Shown here in pieces: positions 229 to 16,327 of a stretch of 16,327 bases of DNA (its first letter is position 1; every line of letters begins with the position of its first letter). The translations under genes and the position numbers were made by a program. The notes beneath the pieces are model-generated. The model was given only the letters and a program-made list of their open reading frames with translations, was not told the DNA's origin and searched no databases. The DNA is taken from IMG/VR virus record IMGVR_UViG_2645728010_000001; one strand, given 5' to 3'. Origin of the DNA: a virus. Taxonomy: Duplodnaviria; Heunggongvirae; Uroviricota; Caudoviricetes.

Positions 229-735
229 TTAACTGCTCTTCGGATACATGGCGTTAACTTCTGGCATTTTCATCAACGCTTCAACGATATGTCCGTCGAA
301 TGTTGCCATGTCTTCCTGCAACAATTCCTGTGCGCTAATAACCATATCAACGGTGATGTTTTCACATGTGTCGAACTTAACCATGACAGCGTTCTGTACT
401 TCAGGGGCCAGCTTGTCAAAAGTGACGTTCATCGGATCGGATTCAGTCTCAACCGGGACAAAAGAAGCAGACTCCTCATCCCAGCGGTTTTCCTGCATAT
501 ATTCAGCATCCCATGAATCGAGGGCAGGGCGGGGTATGCCAGGTTTATCCTCGCAGACAATAAATTTATAAGCGCAGTCCTGAGCAGCCGGATAATGTTC
601 CAGGAACTGCCAGTGAAATTTTGCTCGAGCACGGCGTTCGTCGCCAGCTTCAATGGCTGTGGCTACAGCCACAGCGCCTTCTTCCCTTGTTGCCAGTTCG
701 TCAGGAATAGCGGCGCAAATAAAGACTTTACTCAT
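229..735 (-). CDS. hypothetical protein, distal gene of the dicB operon (ydfE-like position)
   Basis: 168-aa ORF, same strand and downstream of ydfD/dicB; balanced composition; plus-strand ORFs overlapping it look like shadows. Product not recognised. Confidence 0.5.
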   Translation of the reverse strand: MSKVFICAAIPDELATREEGAVAVATAIEAGDERRARAKFHWQFLEHYPAAQDCAYKFIVCEDKPGIPRPALDSWDAEYMQENRWDEESASFVPVETESDPMNVTFDKLAPEVQNAVMVKFDTCENITVDMVISAQELLQEDMATFDGHIVEALMKMPEVNAMYPKSS

Positions 736-3290: not shown

Positions 3291-3795
3291 ACAGGCTCGT
3301 GAGGCTCTGGATGCCTGGATATGTCGACCAGGAATGACACAGGAGCAGGCGACGATATTAATCACTGAAGCATTCTGGGCTTTGAAAGAGCGCCCGAACA
3401 TCGATGTTCAGCGTGTCACATATGAAGGTGGCGCGGTTGATCAGCGAGCGCTTAGCGTTAATCGAGTGAAGATATTCGAACGCTGGAAGGCTATCGACAC
3501 CAGGGATAAGCGTGAAAAGTTCACAGCGCTAGTGCCTGCAATTATGGAGGCTATCCGGATTAGTGATTTCAGGTTGTATCGTGAGATCAGTGATGGAAAA
3601 AGTATTACGTACATGATCGCCGGGTTAAATAAAGAATATGGCGATGTGGTGGAATCCGGACTGCTTTTTGCAGATCCTGCCGTTGTAGATCGTGAAACTG
3701 ACGAACTTATAGAAAAAGCAATTGCTTTCAAGCTTGCGTATCGACAGCAATACCAACAAAAAGCTGGATGGAATTATGAGTCTTCTTTTTGCTGA
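3274..3795 (+). CDS. hypothetical early-region protein (possibly YdaT-like, a CII-type regulator)
   Basis: 173-aa ORF overlapping the 3' end of the cro-like gene and the 5' end of the replication gene; assignment to YdaT is by position only. Confidence 0.45.
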   Translation: MKITPEQAREALDAWICRPGMTQEQATILITEAFWALKERPNIDVQRVTYEGGAVDQRALSVNRVKIFERWKAIDTRDKREKFTALVPAIMEAIRISDFRLYREISDGKSITYMIAGLNKEYGDVVESGLLFADPAVVDRETDELIEKAIAFKLAYRQQYQQKAGWNYESSFC

Positions 3796-4741
3796 ACGCC
3801 CACTGGTTATAAACACGCAGCTGGCAATGAAAATCGGCTTAAACGAAGCCATTGTTTTGCAACAACTGCACTACTGGTTGAGAGATACCAACTCCGGTAT
3901 GGAATGTGATGGTGTTCGCTGGATTTATAACACAACGGAACAATGGCTGGAACAGTTCCCATTCTGGTCAGAGTCAACGTTAAAGCGCGCGTTTGCAAGT
4001 CTGAAAACGCTGGGGCTTTTGCGTTGTGAAAAGCTCAATAAATCAAAGCGCGATATGACCAATTTCTACACGATCAACTATGGGAGCGAGCTTTTAGATG
4101 GTGGCAAATTGAACGAATCCATCGGTTCAAAATGCGCCGCTCCATCAGGTCAAAATGACACGATGGAAGAGGTCAAAATGAAACGCTCCATTGGTTCAAA
4201 ACGATCCAATGTCATCGGGTCAAAATGGCCTGATGATCTTACAGAGAATACAACAGAGATTACTACAGAGAATAAAAACACTTTTCGTCCGGAAGCTTCG
4301 CAACCGGACCCGCAGACGACTGAACAGGATTTTTTAACCCGGAACTCCGACGCGGTTGTGTTTAGTGCGAAAAAACGCCAGTGGGGTAGCAGGGAGGATT
4401 TGGCGTGTGCGCAGTGGATCTGGGGGCGGATCGTGGGTCTCTACGAACAGGCAGCCAGTGATGATGGCGAGATCATGCGACCAAAAGAGCCTAACTGGAC
4501 TGCCTGGGCCAATGACGTGCGCACAATGCGGATGCTGGATGGCAGAAGCCACAGACAAATTTGCGAAATGTTTGGTCGGGTTCAGCGAGATCCATTCTGG
4601 GTAAAAAACATCATGAGCCCGTCAAAGCTCCGCGAAAAATGGGACGAACTGGTCATCCGCCTGGGACGTTCACCTGTACAGCGTTGTGTTAATCATATTT
4701 CTGAACCGGATACAGAAATTCCGCCTGGTTTCAGAGGATAA
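3776..4741 (+). CDS. phage replication initiation protein (lambda O-like organisation, iterons inside the gene)
   Basis: 322 aa from ATG 3776 (ORF open from 3722); central IGSK-encoding region coincides with five DNA iterons; located after the cro/CII-like genes. Confidence 0.65.
   Translation: MSLLFAERPLVINTQLAMKIGLNEAIVLQQLHYWLRDTNSGMECDGVRWIYNTTEQWLEQFPFWSESTLKRAFASLKTLGLLRCEKLNKSKRDMTNFYTINYGSELLDGGKLNESIGSKCAAPSGQNDTMEEVKMKRSIGSKRSNVIGSKWPDDLTENTTEITTENKNTFRPEASQPDPQTTEQDFLTRNSDAVVFSAKKRQWGSREDLACAQWIWGRIVGLYEQAASDDGEIMRPKEPNWTAWANDVRTMRMLDGRSHRQICEMFGRVQRDPFWVKNIMSPSKLREKWDELVIRLGRSPVQRCVNHISEPDTEIPPGFRG
4121..4280. repeat. putative replication origin: five iterons GGT(T)CAAAA(T/C)G at 23-24 bp spacing plus adjacent A+T-rich ACAGAGAATA repeats
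   Basis: Direct repeats begin near 4124, 4148, 4171, 4194 and 4218; followed by acagagaatacaacagagattactacagagaataaaaaca; lies inside the initiator ORF as lambda ori lies in O. Confidence 0.55.
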
Positions 4742-4781
4742 GTGTTGATTTCAGGTCATGAGGTAATTTTAAGGGGGAGTT

Positions 4782-5141
4782 GTGGCAAAAGTTTTTACAC
4801 AAGAAGAGCGGGAAAAAATTAAAGGGCAGGTGGTGGAACTCGTGCGCCAGAGCGGTCGTGAGACGTTACGGCAACTGGAAGCTAAAACAGGTGCGACTAG
4901 ATATCTGATGAGCGTTCTTGCCAGAGAGCTGGTAGCCAGTGGCGATGTATACAACTCCGGCTACGGGTTATTCCCGTCTGAACAGGCGCGTAAGGACTGG
5001 CAAAACGCCCGCAAAAAACTCTCGAGGGCAAAGGTGAAGAAACCTGCTGTGGTTGATCCGGACCTTATCTGGTCATTATACGTCAAGAGCAGGAGATTTA
5101 TGTGCTGGTTCTCAAATGCACGCTGGCTATTGTGGCTGTAA
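4782..5141 (+). CDS. hypothetical protein (119 aa), possible remnant of a replication-module gene
   Basis: GTG start after AAGGGGGAG RBS; N-terminal HTH-like segment; hydrophobic C-terminal tail; no recognised family. Confidence 0.4.
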   Translation: MAKVFTQEEREKIKGQVVELVRQSGRETLRQLEAKTGATRYLMSVLARELVASGDVYNSGYGLFPSEQARKDWQNARKKLSRAKVKKPAVVDPDLIWSLYVKSRRFMCWFSNARWLLWL

Positions 5142-5345
5142 TGGCAATTTATTGTCTTGTTATTGTTCTTATGGATCACCTTTCTGATTGATTTCATATT
5201 GGAGAGGTAACGGTAGTTAAGTAGAATGGCTGCGGGTGCTTGAGGCTATCTGCCTCGGGCATGAACACCAACGGCAGATAGAGAAAAGCCCCAGTTAACA
5301 TTACGCGTCCTGCAAGACGCTTAACATTAATCTGAGGCCAATTTC

Positions 5346-6372: not shown

Positions 6373-7023
6373 GTGCGGGTATTACTTCGACCTGTTCTGG
6401 TACCGGAACTTGGGCTGGTGGTCGTTAAGCCGGGCCGTGAATCCATGCCGGTATTCCACAATACCCGGGTATCCTGGTGGGCGGTCCGCAATCAGCTGGC
6501 GGACGCGCTACCGGAAGCGGTATTACGTCGCTCGCTGGGATTACCAGCGGAAAAAATCTGCTCGGTGTACCGCGAAAGCGACATCGTACCGGGAGAGCAG
6601 ACCGCCACCAGCATATTGAAACAGCGCACAAAAAATCTTGCACCGTTGCCTCACGCCCACCAGCAACAAAACCCATCACAGGAAAAGACGGTGGTAAGCA
6701 TCACCGTTGATCCAGAGTCTCCGGAATCTTTCATGAAGCTGCCTAAACGTCACCGGTGGGTTAAGGAGAAATACACACGCTGGGTTAAGACACAGCCGTG
6801 TGCTTGCTGCGGTATGCCAGCCGACGATCCGCATCATCTGATTGGTCACGGGCAGGGCGGAATGGGAACCAAAGCACATGATCTCTTTGTTTTGCCTTTG
6901 TGCAGAAAGCATCACGACGAGTTGCATACGGATACCGTGGCATTTGAAGAGAAGTATGGCTCCCAACTGGAGCTGATTTTTCGATTTATCGATCGCGCGC
7001 TGGCAATTGGTGTGCTGGCCTAA
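6373..7023 (+). CDS. DUF968-type protein with C-terminal Cys/His (HNH-like) motif (ydfU-like)
   Basis: 216 aa; C-terminal CACCG...DPHH...H...CRKHHDELH cluster; immediately upstream of Q as ydfU is in Qin. Confidence 0.55.
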
Positions 7024-7040
7024 TTTTGTGGAGTAAGTTG

Positions 7041-7418
7041 ATGCGTGATATTCAGATGGTTCTTGAGCGTTGGGGGGCATGGGCGGCTAATAATCATGAA
7101 GATGTGACCTGGTCGTCCATTGCCGCCGGTTTTAAGGGATTAATTCCTTCAAAAGTAAGATCTCGTCCGCAATGCTGTGACGATGACGCGATGATCATTT
7201 GTGAATGTATGGCTCGCCTGAAAAAAAACAACAGCGATTTACATGATTTATTGGTGGACTATTATGTCGGCGGCATGACTTTTATGGCGCTTGCACGTAA
7301 GCATGGGCGATCTGATTGTTGGGTTGGCAGGATGCTCCAGAAAGCTGAGGGCGTAGTGGAGGGCATGCTGATGGTGTTGGATCTCCGATTGGAGATGGAT
7401 GCTGATTGTTCGAAATAA
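7041..7418 (+). CDS. late-gene antiterminator Q (short, QuuD/phage-82-like type)
   Basis: 125 aa from ATG 7041 with GGAG RBS ([24 protein letters not shown]...); cysteine-rich centre; followed by promoter-like region and intrinsic terminator as PR'/tR'. Confidence 0.8.
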
Positions 7419-7573: not shown

Positions 7574-8098
7574 TTATTGTTTAACCCATAATAGTTCATT
7601 GACATTGAATCCCAACTTTTGAGCGGTACGCACATAGTCTGCTTTTACATTATCTGGAATAGTTTGGGTCCTTGCCAGAATCCATAGGTATTCTCTGTTC
7701 GGACCACTGACAAGAGCATACTTATACTCATCATCCAGTTTGATTACATTATAGCCACCATAGAAGGGGCCAAAAAACGAAACTTTCAACGCTGCAGTTT
7801 TAGTATCTCCAGTAAAGTATGCTTTACCTTCGCTCTCGCTCCATTTGTTTTTCGTTGGATCGTATCCACGGTTAAGTACGCGAATCCCTCCGTCGTTCCG
7901 TTTTTCATAAGTAGCGCTGACCTGTTCCAGACCACGTTCGAACCAGTTCTCGAGGCGAGCTATTTCATACCATTTTCCGAGGTAGCGGTTGGCGTCAAAA
8001 TTTGTAATCGGCTGCACACCTTTAGGTGGTGTCGGAGCCTTACATGCTATAAGAGTGAAAGAGAGTGCAATGCCAGTCAACACAGGCCATAACTTCAT
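7574..8098 (-). CDS. outer-membrane lipocalin lipoprotein, Blc family (diverged)
   Basis: 174 aa; signal peptide with lipobox LIAC; lipocalin motifs NFDANRYLGKWYEIARLENWFERGLE, FGPFYGGYNVI, YLWILART; AGGA RBS. Confidence 0.85.
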   Translation of the reverse strand: MKLWPVLTGIALSFTLIACKAPTPPKGVQPITNFDANRYLGKWYEIARLENWFERGLEQVSATYEKRNDGGIRVLNRGYDPTKNKWSESEGKAYFTGDTKTAALKVSFFGPFYGGYNVIKLDDEYKYALVSGPNREYLWILARTQTIPDNVKADYVRTAQKLGFNVNELLWVKQ

Positions 8099-8290
8099 AA
8101 TAAATCCTGTACTTTTGATAGTTGAGAGTAAGTATGAAAGATAGATGAGTACGACCGATCACTTAAAGAACTTTCCTACTATATTAGGAATAGTCAATAA
8201 CAGAAAAATTGTCAGTGATGAAGCCAGAAAGGCAATTTAGTCCGTGCACTACAAAGTTTATGTGTTAATGAATTAGTCAAGGGGGAGGAA

Positions 8291-8440
8291 ATGATAAAAA
8301 AACCTGTGATTGGGATCAGCGGTTGTTTGGGCGGTTCTGCTGTTCGTTTTGATGGTGGTCACAAAAGAGATGACTTTTTAATGGACAAATTAGTGGAATG
8401 GGTAACATTCAGACCAGTATGTCCGGAAATGGCTATATGA
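8291..8440 (+). pseudogene. 5' fragment of a DUF523-type gene truncated by IS3
   Basis: Strong RBS GGGGGAGG; MIKKPVIGISGCLGGSAVRFDGGHK resembles DUF523 N-termini; ORF stops in a TGA supplied by the IS3 terminal repeat; 49 aa where about 150 is expected. Confidence 0.45.
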
Positions 8441-8467
8441 TCCTACCCACGTAATATGGACACAGGC

Positions 8468-9334
8468 CTAAGCGAGGTTCTGGTTTTCAAATTGTTCCGG
8501 ACTGAGGCCGCCACACCAACTGTGCCGCCGCCACCGATTGTAATCACATTCGATATAATTAAACACCGTTGCCCGCATTATTTCCCGGCTGATAAAGTGT
8601 TCTCCATGGATACATTCCACTTTCAGCGAATGAAAGAAGCTTTCCACGCAGGCATTATCGTAGCAGCAACCTTTTGCGCTCATACTTCCACGCAGATTAT
8701 GCCGCTTCAGTTGCGCCTGATAATCTGCTGAACAGTACTGGCCTCCACGGTCCGTGTGAACGATAACGTTCCGGGGCCTCTTACGCCGCCACAGCGCCAT
8801 CTGCAGGGCATCGCAGGCCAGTTGCGCCGTCATGCGTGGCGACATTGACCAGCCAATAACGGCACGTGACCACAGGTCAATGACCACTGCCAGATACAGC
8901 CAGCCTTCATCTGTACGTAAGTACGTGATGTCTCCTGCCCACTTCTGGTTCGGGCCACTGGCGTAAAAATCCTGCTCCAACAGATTTTCTGACACAGGCA
9001 GGCCGTGTGCGCGGTAGCTGACCGGGCTGAACTTCCGGGAGGCCTTTGCCCTCAGTCCCTGACGGCGCAGGCTTGCCGCCACGGTTTTTACGTTAAAGGG
9101 GTAACCCTGAGCACGCAGTTCATCCGTCAGGCGTGGGGCACCGTAACGCTGTTTTGACCGGGTAAAAGCCGCGAGGACAACGCTGTCGCAGTGTTGGCGG
9201 AACTGCTGACGCGTGCTTATCCTTGTCCGCCGCTGACACCACGTATACCAGCCGCTGCGGGCCACCCGGAGCACGCGGCACATTGCTTTGATGCTGAACT
9301 CAGCCTGATGTTTTTCAATAAAGACATACTTCAT
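8468..9334 (-). CDS. insF: IS3 transposase OrfB (DDE integrase-like)
   Basis: 288 aa; matches recalled IS3 OrfB; overlaps orfA in ATGA arrangement. Confidence 0.9.
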
Positions 9335-9630
9335 TTCAGGCGCTTCGCGAAGTATGTCGCGGCCTTTTGGAGGATAGCCAGCTCTTCATCCCGTTCTGCC
9401 AGCTGGCGTTTGAGACGTGCAATCTCGGTAGACATCTCCAGTTCACGTTCAGAAGACGTCTGCTGATTTTGCTGTTTACTGCGCCAGTTGTAGAGTTGTG
9501 ATTCATACAGGCTGAGTTCACGGGCTGCGGCAGTAACACCGATGCGTTCAGCAAGCTTCAGGGCTTCACTGCGAAATTCAGGCGAATGCTGTTTACGGGG
9601 TTTTTTACTGGTTGATACTGTTTTTGTCAT
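9331..9630 (-). CDS. insE: IS3 transposase OrfA (HTH)
   Basis: 99 aa from ATG ([31 protein letters not shown]...); the ORF track's longer start is an upstream GTG. Confidence 0.9.
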
Positions 9631-9663
9631 GTGAGTCACCTCTGACTGAGAGTTTACTCACTT

Positions 9664-11592
9664 AACAGCGCACAGGCGGCAGCGGCCTCGCAGACTGCAT
9701 CGGCAAACTCCGCGACAGCAGCTAAAAAATCAGAAAACAACGCGAAAAATAGCGAGACAGCAGCAAAGACGAGCGAAACCAACGCAAAGTCCAGCCAGGC
9801 GGCAGCGAAAACAAGCGAAACGAATGCCAAAACCAGTGAAACTGCGGCGAAAAGCAGTCAGGCTGCAGCAGCCGAAAGCGAGAGTGCGGCAGCCGGTTCT
9901 GCGACTTCAGCAGCTGGATCAGCAACTGCTGCAGCTAACAGCCAGAAAGCAGCGAAGACGAGCGAAACTAACGCAAAGTCCAGCCAGACGGCAGCGAAGA
10001 CCAGCGAAACGAATGCCAAAGCCAGCGAAACTGCGGCGAAAAACAGTCAGGATGCAGCGGCCCAAAGCGAGAGTGCCGCAGCTGGTTCTGCAAGTGCGGC
10101 GGCTTCTTCTGCCACTGCATCAGCCAACAGTCAAAAAGCTGCAAAAACCAGTGAAACCAACGCAAAGGCGAGCGAGACTGCGGCGGCTAACTCGGCGAAA
10201 GCATCCGCTGCAAGCCAGACGGCTGCAAAAGCAAGTGAAGACGCAGCCAGAGAGTATGCAAGCCAGGCTGCGGAGCCGTATAAACAAGTTTTGCAGCCGC
10301 TTCCCGATGTGTGGATACCGTTTAACGATTCACTGGATATGCTTGCTGGCTTTTCGCCTGGTTATAAGCAAATAACTGTAGGTGATGATGTTATTAAAAT
10401 GCCATCCGATAAGGTTGTTAGCTTCAAACGCGCATCAGGTGCAACATACATTAATAAATCAGGAGTATTAACCGTTGCTGAAGTTGACGAACCGCGATTT
10501 GAACGAGAAGGTTTGCTGATTGAAGGACAAAGAACCAACTATCATCTTAATTCACTTACGCCATCTAAGTGGGGAGCTACAACAAGTGTAACTATAACAG
10601 AAAGTGGTGTTGATGAGTTTGGCTTTACTTATGGGCGGTTTCAAATAAAGGACGAAAAAATTGGGACAAATACGACAATGAATATCGCTGCGGTTTCAGG
10701 AGGAAGAGGTGTCGATGTTACTGGAACTGAAAAGTATGTTACAACATCATGTCGTGTAAAAAGCGATAGTGCTAATATACAATGTCGTATAAGATTTGAA
10801 AGATATGACGGGTCCGCATATTTTTATCTGGCAGATGCATATCTTAATATAACAGATATGTCCATTAGGAAAACGGGAGGAGGGGCTGCAAGAATAACCG
10901 CCCGAGCGGAGAAAGAATCTAATGGATGGATTTATTTCGAGGTTACATATCAATCTGAAGCTATTGATAATATGGTTGGCTCTCAGATCCAAATTGCTCC
11001 ACCTGTTTCACCTGGAACTTATTTGGGCGGGGAATATTTGGATGTTACGACACCACAATTTGAAGGCGGCTCATGCGCATCATCTTTTATCATTTCCGAT
11101 ACAGTTGCATCAACGCGAGCAAGCGATATTGTTACATTGCCTTGTAAAAATAACATGGCCAGCAAACCTTTAACCTGCATGGTTGAAGTGAATAAAAATT
11201 GGTCTATAGCACCAAATTCCGCGCCTAGAATTTATGATATAACAGGATTTAAAACAAAAGACGACGCTTTTGTTTTTGCATTCAGAAATACAGCAGGTAG
11301 TGTAGGAACTCCATATGTTCAATTTGGTAATCCAATATCATTTCCACCTGGAAATTACCCAAGAAAGATTATCGCTGTATATAGAATAAAAAGCGATGGC
11401 AAGTTTCAGGCTGGCTGCAATGGGGTTTTATCAACACCAGCATCAACAACGTGGAAGAGTGTTAGTGGTGCTACAGGTATAAGGATTGGAGGCCAGACTA
11501 CAGCCGGCTTACGTCATTTATTTGGTTATATCAGGAATTTTAGAATATGGCATAAAGAATTAACCGATGCGCAAATGGGAGAGATAATATAA
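9664..11592 (+). pseudogene. side tail fibre gene stf, 5'-truncated at the IS3 junction
   Basis: Open frame without start codon begins at the IS3 boundary; N-part is repetitive (KTSETNAKASETAAK-type repeats), then EPYKQVLQPLPDVWIPFNDSLDM junction and a low-GC C-terminal domain ending GLRHLFGYIRNFRIWHKELTDAQMGEII. Confidence 0.8.
9766..10200 (+). repeat. tandem 189-bp (63-codon) repeats with 45-bp sub-repeats inside stf
   Basis: Near-identical units starting about 9766, 9955 and 10144; boundaries approximate. Confidence 0.6.
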
Positions 11593-11873
11593 TGCGAGAT
11601 TTAATTATCAAATTCACAGACAAGGCCGACTTTTCGGCCTTTATGAAGAGTGCTGGCTATTATGATGACGAGTCGATGCAGGATGATATTCTTATTGACG
11701 TGATAGGTAACGTGTACAAAGAAACCGGAGAACTTACTGAAGATGGCGAGCCGGTATGTGTTAAGGAAGACGGATATTTTGTAAACGTGCGCATCATTAA
11801 TGATGCAAAAAAATCGTCAATATTCGATAAATACGCGGTTGTTGTTGAGCATCAACTTCGTGGCTGGATGTGA
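11592..11873 (+). CDS. hypothetical acidic 93-aa protein (possible tail-fibre chaperone or accessory)
   Basis: ATG overlaps stf stop (TAATG); no recognised family. Confidence 0.5.
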   Translation: MRDLIIKFTDKADFSAFMKSAGYYDDESMQDDILIDVIGNVYKETGELTEDGEPVCVKEDGYFVNVRIINDAKKSSIFDKYAVVVEHQLRGWM

Positions 11874-11882
11874 GGCAGGAAA

Positions 11883-12587
11883 ATGGCTACATCGACAGTA
11901 ATTCCAGGAGATATCACCAAGCTAAAGGGGGATGTCAGTAAAGCTAAGGAAGATATTTCATCAATTAGCAGAAAAGTATCAACGCTTCAGACTGAGATGA
12001 CCAGTGCAAAGCAGGATATCAGCTCCAGATACACAAAAACTGAAGTTGATAATAAGCTGAAAAACAAAGTGGAAGTGAACGATCTGGAAAGTGGTCGTTA
12101 TGGCGGAGATTTTTATCCACTGACAGGTCGTGAAGCGTTTTATTTATGGAATTTGGCCACGACTACAGCGGCGGCAAACCTTTATCTTAATCCTGACCCT
12201 GCAATTTCGTCTGTGCTGCGGTCAACATCGTCTATCCGCTATAAACATTCAGTAGAGACAATAGATTCAGAGCACGCCGATCTCATTTTCAGGATGCGCC
12301 CTGTGTGGTACAGGTCGCAATGCGAAAATGACAGGCGTGACTGGGGATTCTACGGATTGATTGCCGAGGAAGTAGGAGAAATTGCTCCTCAGTTTGTACA
12401 CTGGCGACCAGCTAACGAAGATGATGCTCCTGAAGCTATTTCCAGCAATGGCCTTGTTGCCGAAGGTGTAATGTACGAACGTCTGGTTGTTCCACTGATT
12501 CACCATATCCAGAAACTGACTGAAAGAGTTGATGAACTTGAGTCAGAATTAAAGTTGTTATTAACTTCCCGAAGCGATATTAGATAA
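11883..12587 (+). CDS. short fibre-like protein: N-terminal coiled coil plus C-terminal intramolecular-chaperone (peptidase S74-like) domain
   Basis: 234 aa; motifs SSIRYKHSVETID, GLIAEEVGEIAPQFV, NGLVAEGVMYERLVVPLIHHIQKLTERVDELESEL resemble the autocleaving C-terminal chaperone domain of phage fibres and tailspikes. Confidence 0.55.
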   Translation: MATSTVIPGDITKLKGDVSKAKEDISSISRKVSTLQTEMTSAKQDISSRYTKTEVDNKLKNKVEVNDLESGRYGGDFYPLTGREAFYLWNLATTTAAANLYLNPDPAISSVLRSTSSIRYKHSVETIDSEHADLIFRMRPVWYRSQCENDRRDWGFYGLIAEEVGEIAPQFVHWRPANEDDAPEAISSNGLVAEGVMYERLVVPLIHHIQKLTERVDELESELKLLLTSRSDIR

Positions 12588-12597
12588 AGGAGGAGTA

Positions 12598-12891
12598 ATG
12601 GATATAACACCTTTTCTTCATGCGCTTTGTGCTGTGGCTGCGCAGACACTGGTTGGTCTTTTTACCGGAAACTGGGCTTATGGGGCGATAGCTGGTTGTA
12701 CGTTCTTCATTGCGCGTGAACACACCCAGGCAGAATATCGCTGGATTGAAATGTTCGGGCATGGCAAGCGGATTAACATGCCGTGGTGGGGCGGTTTTGA
12801 TCCGCGTGTTTGGGATGTGGCAAGCCTGATGGATTTTGCTGTGCCGGTGGTGGCGTGTCTGCTGATCTGGCTGTTGGTTAATCGTGGGTGA
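12598..12891 (+). CDS. small membrane protein (97 aa, about 2-3 TM segments), function unknown
   Basis: Strong RBS AAGGAGG; hydrophobic segments AVAAQTLVGLFTGNWAYGAIAGCTFFIA and FAVPVVACLLIWLLV. Confidence 0.55.
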   Translation: MDITPFLHALCAVAAQTLVGLFTGNWAYGAIAGCTFFIAREHTQAEYRWIEMFGHGKRINMPWWGGFDPRVWDVASLMDFAVPVVACLLIWLLVNRG

Positions 12892-12901
12892 AAAAAGGTG
12901 A

Positions 12902-13021
12902 GCTGTATATGCAACGGAGGAAGAAACCCCGTTGCTGGAAGCCAGGAAAAAGTATCGGGTGTTGCTGAACCGTGTTGATACGTCAACTGCACAGGATATT
13001 GAATGGCCAGCACTGCCGTAG
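12902..13021 (+). pseudogene. orphan 3' end of a tail fibre assembly gene (tfa remnant)
   Basis: Start-less open frame ...[31 protein letters not shown] resembles the conserved Tfa C-terminus, just upstream of pin where tfa lies in Rac/Qin. Confidence 0.45.
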
Positions 13022-13118
13022 GGTAAAACATATAAATTCTATAATTAGATGTATCTTTCCATTTACGGCAAGGAAGGGGGCTTGGAAGACGTAAAGCATC
13101 TCACACCGAGATTATTTT

Positions 13119-13709
13119 TTATATGTCAGGTGTCTGAAGTTTTGCTTTGGCTCTTAAAATGGTTTGCCGCGAGGTTTTGAATTCCCGGGCAATGGCACTT
13201 ATACTTACACCTGACTTAATCCGTTCGAATACCACCTGTTTCTGTTCTTCATTTAACACAGGTGGTCGACCAAAACGTTTCCCTGCGCCCCGGGCTCTTA
13301 CTATCCCGGAATGAGTGCGTTCAAGTAAAAGGTCTCGTTCAAATTCAGCGACTGCTGAAATTACTTGCATCATCATTTTTCCTGTTGGACTGGTCAGGTC
13401 AATGCCCCCCAATGCTAAGCAATGCACTCTGATACCTGTTTCGGTCAGTTGTTCCACTGTTTTCCTGATATCCATTGCATTACAACCAAGGCGATCCAAT
13501 TTTGTCACAATCAATTGATCACCACATTTCAGGCGAGCAAGCAACCGGTTAAAACCAGGACGCTCACTGGTTGCTGCTGAGCCGCTAATGTGTTCTTCGA
13601 TTATTTGCTGAGGTTTGATTTTAAAACCTGCACTTTCGATTTCCCGGCGTTGATTTTCGGTGGTCTGATCCAGCGTTGATATCCGACAGTAAGCAAAAAT
13701 TCGAGACAT
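13119..13709 (-). CDS. pin: serine-recombinase DNA invertase (Pin/Hin/Gin/Cin family)
   Basis: 196 aa; [12 protein letters not shown]...with catalytic-Ser context (CRIST), resolvase fold motifs and C-terminal HTH ([18 protein letters not shown]). Confidence 0.9.
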
Positions 13710-14024: not shown

Positions 14025-14258
14025 TTACATTTTACCATTTAAATTTTGGTTGTCTTTAAGAACTGATATCGCTGTTTGTAATAATTCTTTGTTATCCAGC
14101 CATGATTTTTTCTTTATGTTTCCTTCAATGTAATCAAGCAATGTTCTGGTATTGATAGGTCTTCCCTGTTTTGCTACTTCCACTACAGCATCCCCTAGGA
14201 TAATTCTTACTTCAGGAAGCTGCGCAGGGAACCACTTTAGGGTGTCTTTTGATTTCAT
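14025..14258 (-). CDS. ydfK: YdfK/YnaE-like small prophage protein
   Basis: 77 aa from internal ATG with AAGGA RBS (MKSKDTLKWFPAQLPEVRIILGDAVVEV...); the longer ORF-track start lacks an RBS; position next to pin as in Qin/Rac. Confidence 0.6.
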   Translation of the reverse strand: MKSKDTLKWFPAQLPEVRIILGDAVVEVAKQGRPINTRTLLDYIEGNIKKKSWLDNKELLQTAISVLKDNQNLNGKM

Positions 14259-15043
14259 GAAGATATTCCTTAAAATATTATTGATTTTCATTGCGATATT
14301 GTATGTCTGATTCAGAATATGTTGACTTATACATCGGTTTTGTCTGGGTTATTGGATATGCCAATCCCTAATTTTATTAGGGCATGACTAAAAATGCTGA
14401 ATATGATAAGGAGAGAAGTGATTATCAGTATGCTGTTCATATAGCCTCGAATTATTAATGTGTTATATATGATATAGTTGACGATTTTTATCTTGGGTGT
14501 TCTTAAAGTTCGTAGATAAACATTGTCGTTTCAGGTATACAGGAATGCTAACAGGTGGCAGCAAAAATCAGGCGGTTTATGGCGCAAGCTGAAGCGGCAA
14601 CTGCAAACTATCTTATGCAGAGACTCTACACGGATTGGGTTTAAAAGTATACATAGATAACAGTTTTTATCTGAAGAAGAAAAATATCAAGGTGATATAG
14701 CCTATATGCCTTTGATGCGGAGGAATGAATGTGATGGGAGTGATGTATCTGAATAGTTGAAAAACCGCAGACACGCCTTATGCAAGAACGTGCTGCGGTT
14801 GGCTGGTAAATTTTTCGATAGTGTGTGTATTGAATGATTTCCAGCCGTTCTTGATTTTACGCATAAATCCATGAAAAAACCACTTATCTGTTGGGGAGTT
14901 TTTTTGGGGCATATATGGGACAGAAATAGGCCCCAGATAGACACTGAGATCGAACTCAGGATGCTTTTTAAAAAATGCAACTATCTGAAAAAACCTAGAA
15001 AACGCCAAGGGAACCACAGGATGGGAAAAAACACCTGTGAATT

Positions 15044-16327
15044 ATGGATTTCCAGTTATATTCGCTCGGCGCAGCGTTAGTGTTTCATGAAATATTTTTT
15101 CCTGAATCATCAACGGCAATGGCGTTAATTTTGGCAATGGGAACCTACGGTGCAGGTTATGTGGCGCGTATTGTCGGAGCATTTATTTTCGGCAAAATGG
15201 GCGACAGAATAGGGCGTAAAAAAGTGCTCTTTATTACCATCACCATGATGGGGATCTGTACCACCTTAATTGGTGTGTTACCGACCTATGCACAGATTGG
15301 TGTTTTTGCCCCCATCTTGCTGGTGACGCTGCGTATTATTCAGGGGTTGGGTGCAGGTGCGGAAATTTCCGGTGCCGGTACGATGCTGGCGGAATATGCA
15401 CCAAAAGGTAAGCGCGGAATTATCTCCTCATTTGTAGCTATGGGAACTAACTGCGGAACCTTGAGCGCAACGGCAATCTGGGCCTTTATGTTCTTCATTC
15501 TCAGTAAAGAGGAACTGCTGGCGTGGGGATGGCGTATACCGTTCCTGGCGAGCGTTGTCGTGATGGTCTTTGCTATCTGGTTACGTATGAATCTGAAAGA
15601 AAGCCCGGTCTTTGAGAAGGTTAATGACAGCAACCAACCCACAGCAAAACCTGCACCTGCTGGTAGCATGTTCCAGAGCAAATCCTTCTGGCTGGCAACA
15701 GGGCTGCGTTTTGGTCAGGCGGGTAACTCCGGGTTAATTCAGACTTTCCTTGCAGGCTATTTAGTGCAGACGTTATTGTTTAACAAAGCAATTCCAACAG
15801 ATGCATTGATGATTAGTTCGATTCTCGGCTTTATGACCATTCCGTTCCTTGGTTGGTTATCCGATAAAATTGGTCGCCGGATCCCGTATATTATTATGAA
15901 TACCTCCGCGATTGTGCTGGCATGGCCAATGCTTTCTATCATTGTAGATAAAAGCTATGCCCCGAGCACCATTATGGTTGCACTGATTGTGATTCATAAC
16001 TGTGCGGTGCTGGGATTATTTGCTCTGGAAAACATTACCATGGCAGAAATGTTCGGCTGTAAAAACCGCTTTACCCGGATGGCTATTTCTAAAGAAATTG
16101 GTGGTCTTATCGCTTCCGGTTTTGGTCCTATCCTGGCGGGTATTTTCTGCACCATGACGGAATCCTGGTATCCGATCGCCATTATGATCATGGCATATTC
16201 AGTGATTGGTTTAATCTCTGCGCTGAAAATGCCAGAGGTGAAAGACCGTGATTTAAGTGCGCTGGAAGACGCTGCGGAAGATCAACCGCGTGTTGTAAGA
16301 GCTGCGCAACCTTCCAGAAGTCTGTAA
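15044..16327 (+). CDS. ydfJ: MFS metabolite:H+ symporter-family transporter, N-terminally truncated at prophage junction (ydfJ-like)
   Basis: 427 aa with MFS signatures (GDRIGRKK, 12-TM-like hydropathy); alignment logic with family members implies about 25 N-terminal residues (start of TM1) are missing; in-frame stop 3 nt upstream of the ATG. Confidence 0.75.
   Translation: MDFQLYSLGAALVFHEIFFPESSTAMALILAMGTYGAGYVARIVGAFIFGKMGDRIGRKKVLFITITMMGICTTLIGVLPTYAQIGVFAPILLVTLRIIQGLGAGAEISGAGTMLAEYAPKGKRGIISSFVAMGTNCGTLSATAIWAFMFFILSKEELLAWGWRIPFLASVVVMVFAIWLRMNLKESPVFEKVNDSNQPTAKPAPAGSMFQSKSFWLATGLRFGQAGNSGLIQTFLAGYLVQTLLFNKAIPTDALMISSILGFMTIPFLGWLSDKIGRRIPYIIMNTSAIVLAWPMLSIIVDKSYAPSTIMVALIVIHNCAVLGLFALENITMAEMFGCKNRFTRMAISKEIGGLIASGFGPILAGIFCTMTESWYPIAIMIMAYSVIGLISALKMPEVKDRDLSALEDAAEDQPRVVRAAQPSRSL

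Follow-up and report, generated by a model that had tools for sequence, protein, structure and literature searches.

A truncated IS3 element at a BL21-specific deletion in the Qin prophage of Escherichia coli BL21(DE3)

Genes and features of the locus

The whole stretch of 16,327 bp that was analysed, hereafter the window, matched the BL21(DE3) chromosome with 100% identity over its full length (NC_012971.2, 1580299-1596625, reverse complement), and represents Qin, the cryptic lambdoid prophage that E. coli BL21(DE3) carries at the rspB-ydfJ site. The RefSeq annotation of the matching region lists rspB and a truncated ydfJ as flanks, together with the Qin genes dicB, ydfD, hokD, rem, Q, stf, tfa', pinQ and ydfK. 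The features discussed below are collected in Table 1. Apart from IS3, annotation and Pfam searches revealed only a lipocalin gene and a DUF523 fragment between Q and stf, confirming a first-pass annotation of the window which had found no lysis, terminase, head or tail genes in this interval.

Table 1. Features of the BL21(DE3) Qin window (positions in the window; a dot marks features with no strand).
Feature	Position	Strand	Evidence or remarks
Junction of the second BL21-only deletion, CGGATAC microhomology	241-247	.	2,095 bp lost: xis 5' end, most of exo
Junction of the third BL21-only deletion, TA microhomology	5077-5078	.	1,363 bp lost: DUF977 3' end, methyltransferase fragment, queH
Antiterminator Q gene (Qin)	7026-7418	+	Pfam PF06530, E = 8e-51; RefSeq annotation
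blc-like lipocalin moron gene	7574-8098	-	Pfam Lipocalin_2, E = 7.5e-43
ybgA-like DUF523+DUF1722 gene, 5' fragment (49 codons), interrupted by IS3	8291-8437	+	Pfam PF04463
ATA, the copy that remains of the IS3 target-site duplication (3 bp)	8435-8437	.	Comparison with REL606 and E308
IS3 remnant (nt 32-1258 out of 1258)	8438-9664 (1,227 bp)	-	Alignment to K-12 IS3A and the REL606 copies
IS3 orfB (insF, DDE transposase domain), intact	8468-9334	-	Pfam rve, rve_2, HTH_21; identical to REL606 copy
IS3 orfA (insE), intact	9331-9630	-	Pfam HTH_Tnp_1; ORF list
TA microhomology at the deletion junction, join between 9664 and 9665	9663-9664	.	blastn overlap, junction sequences, REL606 sequences
stf pseudogene: codons 151-792, without their own start codon	9664-11592	+	REL606 comparison; RefSeq

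The 49-codon ORF matched positions 1-45 of the 141 of Pfam PF04463 (2-thiouracil desulfurase/DUF523, E = 9e-12) and corresponds to codons 1-49 only of a two-domain YbgA-like protein of about 319 aa; in E308, where it is uninterrupted, the gene has 960 nt (319 codons plus stop), and a full-length gene of 960 nt is also present in phage Lambda_2E9. Its stop codon, TGA at 8438-8440, is supplied by the intact right terminus of IS3, as had been recognised from the sequence. The insertion site reads GGCTATA[IS3]ATAGGGCTG in REL606, and the uninterrupted E308 gene reads GGCTATAGGGCTG. It had also been suggested that the Blc/DUF523 segment may have been brought by the IS. This is ruled out by more than 1,000 E. 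coli genomes and 12 phage records, which have the gene order Q, blc, ybgA-like without IS3; blc occupies the same position with no IS3 in E308 and in Lambda_2E9, where the module sits between Q and the holin gene. Judged from the genomes compared, blc and the ybgA-like gene make up a common lambdoid moron module.

The closest known counterparts of the IS3 copy in the window belong to the IS3 group of the IS3 family, such as K-12 IS3A-E and the REL606 copies. A complete IS3 has two imperfect inverted repeats of about 39 bp (5'-TG...CA-3'), overlapping orfA and orfB in -1 frame with a DDE (rve) domain, and a 3-bp flanking target duplication. The remnant shares the DDE (rve) domain, the frameshift arrangement, with orfA and orfB overlapping by 4 nt and a RefSeq CDS labelled 'programmed frameshift', and the right inverted repeat, complete at 8438-8476; in contrast to those copies, nt 1-31 of the left repeat are missing from it, as is the 3-bp duplication, and it is not a complete element. 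The left repeat has lost 31 of its 39 bp (33 bp, if the shared TA is counted as stf), including the terminal TGATC, and its remainder is 8 nt long (TAAGTGAG). The flanks read ATA and ACA, in agreement with the absence of a target-site duplication expected by the first-pass annotation, which had also placed the orfA-side end about 30 bp short of the repeat and running into an internal stf codon. Over the 1,227 bp, the remnant shows no mismatch with the first of the two REL606 IS3 copies described below, one with K-12 IS3A and two with the second REL606 copy (positions 45 and 1059). The first REL606 copy served as reference for the left terminus, where K-12 IS3A is a poor one (annotated as 1255 bp, with the first 3 bases different).

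The IS3 match ends at 9664, and the following base enters codon 151 of the 792 of stf in frame. The 3' part of stf is 100% identical to REL606 (L004 31326-33255) within a continuous 792-codon ORF, and RefSeq labels it a pseudo-CDS 'missing N-terminus'; both this and the DUF523 fragment are presumably dead pseudogenes. Promoter and terminator scans of the window at 9450-9900 and of the intact IS3 end of REL606 gave none at either, a result with no bearing on a loss of the orfA promoter. According to established IS3-family biology, the remnant would be unable to transpose as a unit, because the end needed for transposase binding and cleavage has been lost; it would still encode intact OrfA and OrfAB, and should remain a substrate for homologous recombination.

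The same locus in other E. coli B strains

The prophage flanks of REL606 and E308 are the same as those of the BL21(DE3) Qin, and REL606 carries the same IS3 insertion at full length (1258 bp) with an ATA/ATA target duplication. Such an element, with both terminal repeats and a 3-bp duplication, had been named beforehand as an observation that would refute the first-pass reading; it exists at the same insertion in REL606, and not in the window. Downstream of it, REL606 retains the remaining part of the ybgA-like gene, the lysis cassette, the genes from cspI to gnsB, a second IS3, J in truncated form, lom, and stf at its intact length of 792 codons. The second IS3 lies 7,554 bp downstream of the first in the same orientation, has no target duplication (AAT vs ATT) and abuts the truncated J (J'). 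The REL606-like gene content is also found in ATCC 11303 and E308, and the BL21 arrangement is therefore the derived state.

When the window was compared with REL606 by blastn, three collinear blocks were obtained, with net losses of 2,095, 1,363 and 10,070 bp; the corresponding overlaps were 10, 2 and 2 bp. The Qin of REL606 and ATCC 11303 and that of BL21 have in common the rspB-ydfJ site, the IS3 in the ybgA-like gene and 99.98-100% identity in the retained segments; they differ by these three losses, which took from BL21, among others, most of exo, queH, ynfQ and ynfN. The largest one is located at the IS3/stf join. The comparison with intact relatives, suggested at the outset, thus defined the deleted interval as IS3 nt 31/32 to stf codon 150/151, running from the 3' part of the ybgA-like gene to stf codons 1-150 and including an HTH gene, the lysis cassette, cspI to gnsB, the second IS3, J' and lom. 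By contrast, two consequences attributed to this deletion did not hold. The terminase/head/tail block was not removed by it, since the region that begins beyond gnsB and extends into the 5' part of J, beside the second IS3, is already absent in REL606 and ATCC 11303; nor did it immobilise the prophage, since REL606, which does not have the BL21 deletion, already shows a frameshift in the integrase gene.

Origin of the 10,070-bp loss

The sequence TA is present at both REL606 breakpoints with no further homology, and the deletion endpoint is 31 bp inside IS3, not at its tip. Moreover, the two sibling deletions found only in BL21 (2,095 bp with a 7-bp, and 1,363 bp with a 2-bp microhomology) have no IS at either end. 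An endpoint inside the IS and two siblings formed with no IS favour IS-independent illegitimate (microhomology) recombination as the most likely mechanism, and one loss of 10 kb would be the most parsimonious explanation. The comparisons show that IS3 inserted in the ybgA-like moron gene of the phage, with duplication of ATA, long before laboratory domestication, an insertion common to REL606, other B strains and wild isolates; that the ancestral B also carried the second IS3 abutting the truncated J, marking an older loss of the terminase/head/tail genes; and that, in the BL21 pedigree only, a net 10,070 bp between IS3 nt 31/32 and stf codon 150/151 were lost, with a join at the 2-bp TA. As a whole, we consider quite probable a reconstruction in which this last step took place with no contribution of the IS.

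The final sequence does not tell how many events took place, nor in which order, and a two-step route would lead to the same result. In this case, homologous recombination between the two direct IS3 copies would first have removed 7,554 bp (ybgA' to gnsB), and a separate illegitimate deletion of 2,516 bp would have started at nt 31/32 of the left repeat and taken away J', lom and stf codons 1-150; the reverse order is possible as well. The recombination step would leave the arrangement ybgA'-IS3-J', which several present-day B stocks and wild isolates do have: a single IS3, with the two junctions exactly 1,258 bp apart, is found in E. coli B CP115178, in 'C' CP029371, in H1827/12 and in about 15 other genomes. 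This state arose at least two times, as the transposase of H1827/12 is of the second-copy type and that of B CP115178 of the first-copy type at both variant sites, and the allele pattern of the CP115178 copy is exactly that of BL21. On the other hand, the route requires two events instead of one, and its intermediate was observed in no BL21-family genome. In addition, the crossover would be confined to the 168-199 bp nearest the left end, about 15% of the element, because allele C at position 1059 of the second IS3 is ancestral in B, as deduced from the same protein (WP_085947771) in ATCC 11303. The differences between the two copies at positions 45 and 1059 only down-weight this route, which we regard as possible, though rather unlikely.

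An involvement of the transposase appears improbable. In an abortive IS3 transposition, possibly stimulated by SOS or UV, the DNA would have been nicked or broken at the left terminus, and resection would have taken 31 bp of the IS on one side and several kb on the other before rejoining at the TA microhomology. The closeness of the endpoint to the IS terminus and the intact orfA and orfB would be consistent with such a break; however, sibling deletions with like microhomology and no IS nearby make the IS unnecessary, and no other IS3 copy with the same truncation was found among 5,426 genomes. The distance of only 31 bp from the IS terminus may be a coincidence, or a hint of a nick made by the transposase.

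In deletions mediated by an adjacent IS, the IS end is left intact and the deletion starts exactly at the terminus. The first-pass annotation had proposed an event of this kind, associated with IS3. What stood of this proposal is that a real deletion abuts an IS3 lacking one terminal repeat; the IS-mediated mechanism did not, in view of an endpoint 31 bp inside the IS, of the 2-bp microhomology and of the two sibling deletions free of IS. Like the adjacent deletions known for IS1 and IS150, the one in BL21 lies beside an IS, and one copy of the target duplication has been removed; no duplication is seen in the window. Unlike in those, the terminus is not exactly preserved but deleted. Intramolecular transposition would preserve the IS end, of which 31 bp are gone here; moreover, the region from terminase to J was already absent in the parental state, represented by REL606, and a second IS3 lay inside the deleted interval. 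We therefore judge it very unlikely that the structural region was lost in one step by a classical IS3-mediated adjacent deletion.

The identical 60-bp left junction (IS3/stf) was present only in BL21-family assemblies, 32 in number, and the right junction in 72 genomes, with REL606, B, ATCC 11303 and wild isolates among them. IS copies are classic sites of misassembly, and a collapse of the repeat at this locus affects at least one BL21 assembly deposited as 'complete' (CP081489), but the probability of an artefact is negligible, because the same junction recurs in all 32 assemblies, and its stf side is unique sequence. Inversions mediated by IS3 through the remnant had been suspected from four BL21 assemblies with distant junctions; the one inspected, CP081489, turned out to be a collapsed scaffold, in which ybgA' adjoins wbbD, and stf' adjoins a truncated gene for a GTP-binding protein (probably tufB), and which yet contains both junction sequences; the inversions were accordingly rejected.

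The deletion in the BL21 pedigree and its meaning

The truncated IS3 at the BL21 Qin deletion is a real but ordinary feature, and most likely one already catalogued. The differences between BL21 and REL606 were reportedly catalogued in 2009 by Studier, Daegelen, Lenski, Maslov and Kim (J Mol Biol 394:653), who are said to have ascribed 16 large deletions of the BL21 lineage to two UV treatments. The 10-kb Qin deletion, likewise multi-kb and specific to the BL21 lineage against REL606, is probably one of this set. Under a uniform model, the 16 deletions reportedly counted would lead to an expectation of about 0.1 deletions in Qin; with caveats applied, three are only mildly unusual. A full-text literature search outside Studier et al. 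2009 returned only indirect mentions of the BL21 Qin deletion, and a passage of PMC3149613 credits to Studier 2009 a UV-caused BL21 deletion at the mod genes.

It is conceivable, although doubtful, that the three BL21-only deletions in the ~30-kb Qin are footprints of an abortive activity of the prophage triggered by UV/SOS, with breakage of the prophage or at an IS3 end, and not independent accidents. If so, cells rid of the killing functions of Qin, the Q-dependent lysis cassette for example, would be enriched among the survivors of heavy irradiation, and erosion of the IS3 end would be one signature of this activity.

Losses of this kind are not restricted to BL21. In the long-term evolution of populations derived from REL606 (2014, PMC4173774), prophage remnants were strongly over-represented among large deletions, and Qin-like deletions were reported in 6 of the 12 populations. 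The prophage and the background are the same, and remnants were frequently lost, with or without IS recombination; however, those deletions started from REL606, whereas the one in BL21 is independent, earlier and belongs to another pedigree.

For general biology the finding has little import, but it is a clean case for learning to distinguish a deletion that lies beside an IS from one brought about by a transposase. The direct IS3 pair in the Qin of the ancestral B recombines recurrently, and B stocks therefore differ at this locus; moreover, some deposited 'complete' BL21 assemblies are collapsed at the IS3 repeat. For users of BL21(DE3) the value is that of a practical record: its Qin is devoid of the lysis cassette, cspI, gnsB, lom, queH and most of exo, all of which are kept by REL606 and other B strains, and one of the five IS3 matches in its genome is a one-ended remnant, which would be immobile as a unit and still encode transposase and be able to recombine with the other copies.

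The truncated IS3 copy and its neighbours in Qin

The entire 16,327-bp window is identical to positions 1580299-1596625 of NC_012971.2 (BL21(DE3)), reverse complement, and in megablast searches region 8100-9900 gave 100% full-length matches solely to E. coli BL21-family chromosomes. By RefSeq annotation the window belongs to the cryptic lambdoid prophage Qin, bounded by rspB and truncated ydfJ, with the gene order xis, exo', ydfD, dicB, cI/cro-like genes, ydaT-like, DUF977, hokD, rem, DUF968', Q, lipocalin gene, '2-thiouracil desulfurase family' pseudogene, IS3, tail-fibre pseudogene 'missing N-terminus', small tail-fibre genes, tfa', pinQ and ydfK (primes mark truncated genes). The DUF968 gene is 5'-truncated in every B strain examined (1050 nt in E308, an E. 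coli strain with an uninterrupted ybgA-like gene), an older decay event with no relation to IS3.

The alignment with K-12 IS3A was unbroken, with one mismatch. It starts at the right terminus (…GGGTAGGATCA) and breaks off abruptly at TAAGTGAGTAAAC…, upstream of orfA. Only the final 8 nt of the canonical left repeat, TGATCTTACCCAGCAATAGTGGACACGCGGCTAAGTGAG in REL606, remain in the window, and 31 bp are gone, or 33 bp with the ambiguous TA counted as stf. The elements described in the first-pass annotation were all confirmed: the truncated left end, the abutment on stf and the intact right end, whose TGA (8438-8440) closes a 49-codon ORF (8291-8437) matching positions 1-45 of Pfam PF04463 (2-thiouracil desulfurase / DUF523). 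As it had expected, no target duplication was found around the remnant, the flanking triplets being ATA and ACA. Neither orfA nor orfB is damaged, and Pfam finds HTH_Tnp_1 and rve domains in them. Since synapsis and cleavage in the IS3 family require both terminal repeats, the remnant should no longer transpose as a unit; in principle, it can still encode OrfA/OrfAB and act as a recombination substrate. The K-12 IS3A copy carries GCC at the three bases expected to be the canonical left-terminus TGA and, thus, may also be without a perfect left tip.

On the other side of the junction, 9664-11592 is an open frame with many Ala/Ser/Thr/Lys repeats, annotated as an N-terminally truncated fibre; the ORF listing of the window showed no in-frame ATG, GTG or TTG before 10291, and this stf fragment is a pseudogene. 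The following segment resembles a Pin-invertible fibre segment in decay, unlike the tfaQ arrangement of E308 and K-12.

Between the end of Q and the IS3 insertion point lie 1,018 bp that recur in 1,148 E. coli genomes, in most cases alongside a full-length 'YbgA family' gene, and in 12 phage records. In phage Lambda_2E9, which is complete, Q is followed by blc (minus strand), the ybgA-like gene, a hypothetical gene, holin, lysozyme and Rz. Lambdoid phages widely carry the blc/ybgA-like pair as a moron placed between Q and the holin gene; the pair's IS3-free occurrence in Lambda_2E9 and its wide distribution in E. coli rule out that it had been brought in by the IS, as had been suggested as a possibility. 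The REL606 Qin also has queH, and thus two predicted enzymes related to modified nucleobases in one prophage.

Coordinates of the features in the window and in the compared genomes
Feature	Sequence	Position	Remarks
Deletion 1	window	241-247	lost: xis 5' end, most of exo
Deletion 2	window	5077-5078	lost: DUF977 3' end, methyltransferase fragment, queH
DUF968 (ydfU-like) gene	window	6373-7023	upstream of Q
blc-like lipocalin and ybgA-like DUF523+DUF1722 (2-thiouracil desulfurase family) genes	window	7574-8437	divergent pair
Same pair	Lambda_2E9 (L008)	3656-5332	
IS3 remnant	window	8438-9664	1,227 bp, minus strand
Segment downstream of stf'	window	11592-13709	93-codon ORF; 234-codon tail-fibre gene with Peptidase_S74 chaperone domain; 97-codon ORF; 111-nt tfa fragment; intact pinQ invertase
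IS3 copy 1	REL606 (L004)	20031-21288	1258 bp
IS3 copy 2	REL606 (L004)	27585-28842	full-length; same orientation as copy 1, 7,554 bp downstream
stf	REL606 (L004)	30877-33255	792 codons
Single IS3	E. coli B CP115178 (L005)	14031-15288	
Single IS3	H1827/12 (L007)	7773-9030	estimated from annotated CDS and junction match, not located directly
IS3A	K-12 MG1655 (L002)	1730-2984	annotated at 1255 bp

The REL606 arrangement and the deletions of BL21

The two IS3 ends were told apart with 60-bp probes, one centred on each junction. The right junction (ybgA'/IS3) was found in 72 genomes, including REL606, several other B stocks, ATCC 11303, NCTC10537 and wild isolates from humans, poultry, pigs and seawater; the left one (IS3/stf), at 100% identity, in only 32, every one BL21-family by name or genome size (BL21, BL21(DE3), C41/C43, BLR, NEB Express/T7 Express and BAP1 among them).

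In REL606, IS3 copy 1 is full length and flanked by ATA/ATA, and the uninterrupted gene of E308 reads GGCTATAGGGCTG at the insertion site; thus, it is a textbook simple insertion. Beyond it lie the 3' part of the ybgA-like gene, an HTH gene, essD, ydfR', rrrQ, rzpQ, cspI, ynfQ, ynfN, gnsB, a small ORF and IS3 copy 2, followed by J without its N-terminus, lom and stf, a single uninterrupted ORF that RefSeq/PGAP breaks into several partial features that overlap, some of them placed on the opposite strand. Since ATCC 11303 and, for the unaffected parts, E308 share this content, BL21 represents the derived state.

Compared by blastn, the window and REL606 share four collinear blocks (99.98-100% identity), whose offsets give net losses of 2,095, 1,363 and 10,070 bp, with junction microhomologies of CGGATAC (7 bp perfect, 9/10 overall), TA and TA, respectively. 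The first two deletions have no IS at their endpoints. The third spans IS3 nt 31/32 to stf codon 150/151: the REL606 breakpoints are …ctcactTA/GCCGCGTG… on the left and …GCAGCTA/acagcgcac… on the right, and the BL21 junction is …ctcactta/acagcgcac….

Older events at the second IS3 copy

IS3 copy 2 of REL606 links the region downstream of gnsB (GGTGAAT/) straight to the interior of J (/ATTTTCAG), with no target duplication (AAT vs ATT), and the corresponding sequence of E308 runs on into nohQ-like and terminase genes. The IS3/J' junction is common to 29 genomes, wild isolates among them, and is therefore an old, natural event; copy 2 marks an earlier loss of terminase, head and tail genes. Thus, comparison with relatives did define a deleted interval, but not of the extent previously proposed: the structural region was already missing when BL21 lost its 10,070 bp. 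Neither did this deletion immobilise the prophage, since the integrase is frameshifted already in REL606 and Qin was immobile beforehand.

A third state, in which a lone IS3 separates ybgA' from J' and exactly 1,258 bp lie between the two junctions, is present in E. coli B CP115178, 'C' CP029371, H1827/12 and ~15 other genomes. It arose by homologous recombination of one IS3 copy with the other, at the cost of 7,554 bp, lysis cassette included. The copies differ at positions 45 and 1059, numbered from the right end: B CP115178 and the BL21 remnant are copy 1-type at both, H1827/12 has a copy 2-type transposase, and the copy 2 allele is ancestral in B, as shown by ATCC 11303. Because different alleles were retained, this recombination arose at least twice. 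B stocks are polymorphic, with two copies in REL606, ATCC 11303, NCTC10537, AS19 and B-DolR, and one in B CP115178 and most of its drug-resistant derivatives.

At this locus the repeat has collapsed in the 'complete' BL21(DE3) assembly CP081489 (NZ_CP081489.1; L009, L010): the IS3 body is missing, with ybgA' running into wbbD and a truncated GTP-binding-protein gene (probably tufB) into stf'. In CP083273, CP083274 and CP084683 the two junctions are likewise far apart, probably by the same collapse, and the structure of these assemblies is not to be trusted.

Origin of the 10,070-bp deletion

We favour IS-independent illegitimate recombination as the process that would have caused the 10,070-bp loss, because the IS3 terminus is itself lost, the join is a 2-bp microhomology and the two sibling BL21-only deletions in Qin have equivalent junctions with no IS nearby. 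Studier et al., in 2009, reportedly named two UV treatments as the cause of 16 large deletions in the BL21(DE3) lineage. PMC3149613 cites Studier et al. 2009 for a deletion at the mod genes that was caused by UV.

BL21 could also have been reached in two steps, by recombination between the IS3 copies and a 2,516-bp deletion, and the end product alone is compatible with either route; this one, however, demands a crossover within the ~15% of the element that borders its left end, and the single 10,070-bp event is more likely. A transposase-made nick at the IS3 left end, followed by resection, is possible, although IS3 is almost inactive in B (PMC7881107). Such a nick is not needed to account for the data. 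The adjacent deletion suggested at first was right about a deletion and a dead IS end but wrong in its mechanism class: when such deletions arise by intramolecular transposition, the IS terminus is kept and the deletion begins exactly there.

The IS3/stf structure is most likely among the genome differences catalogued in 2009. The 10,070-bp loss is lineage-specific and arose in the laboratory era, in a strain that has been studied intensively; it agrees with the instability of Qin already known from B (PMC4173774).
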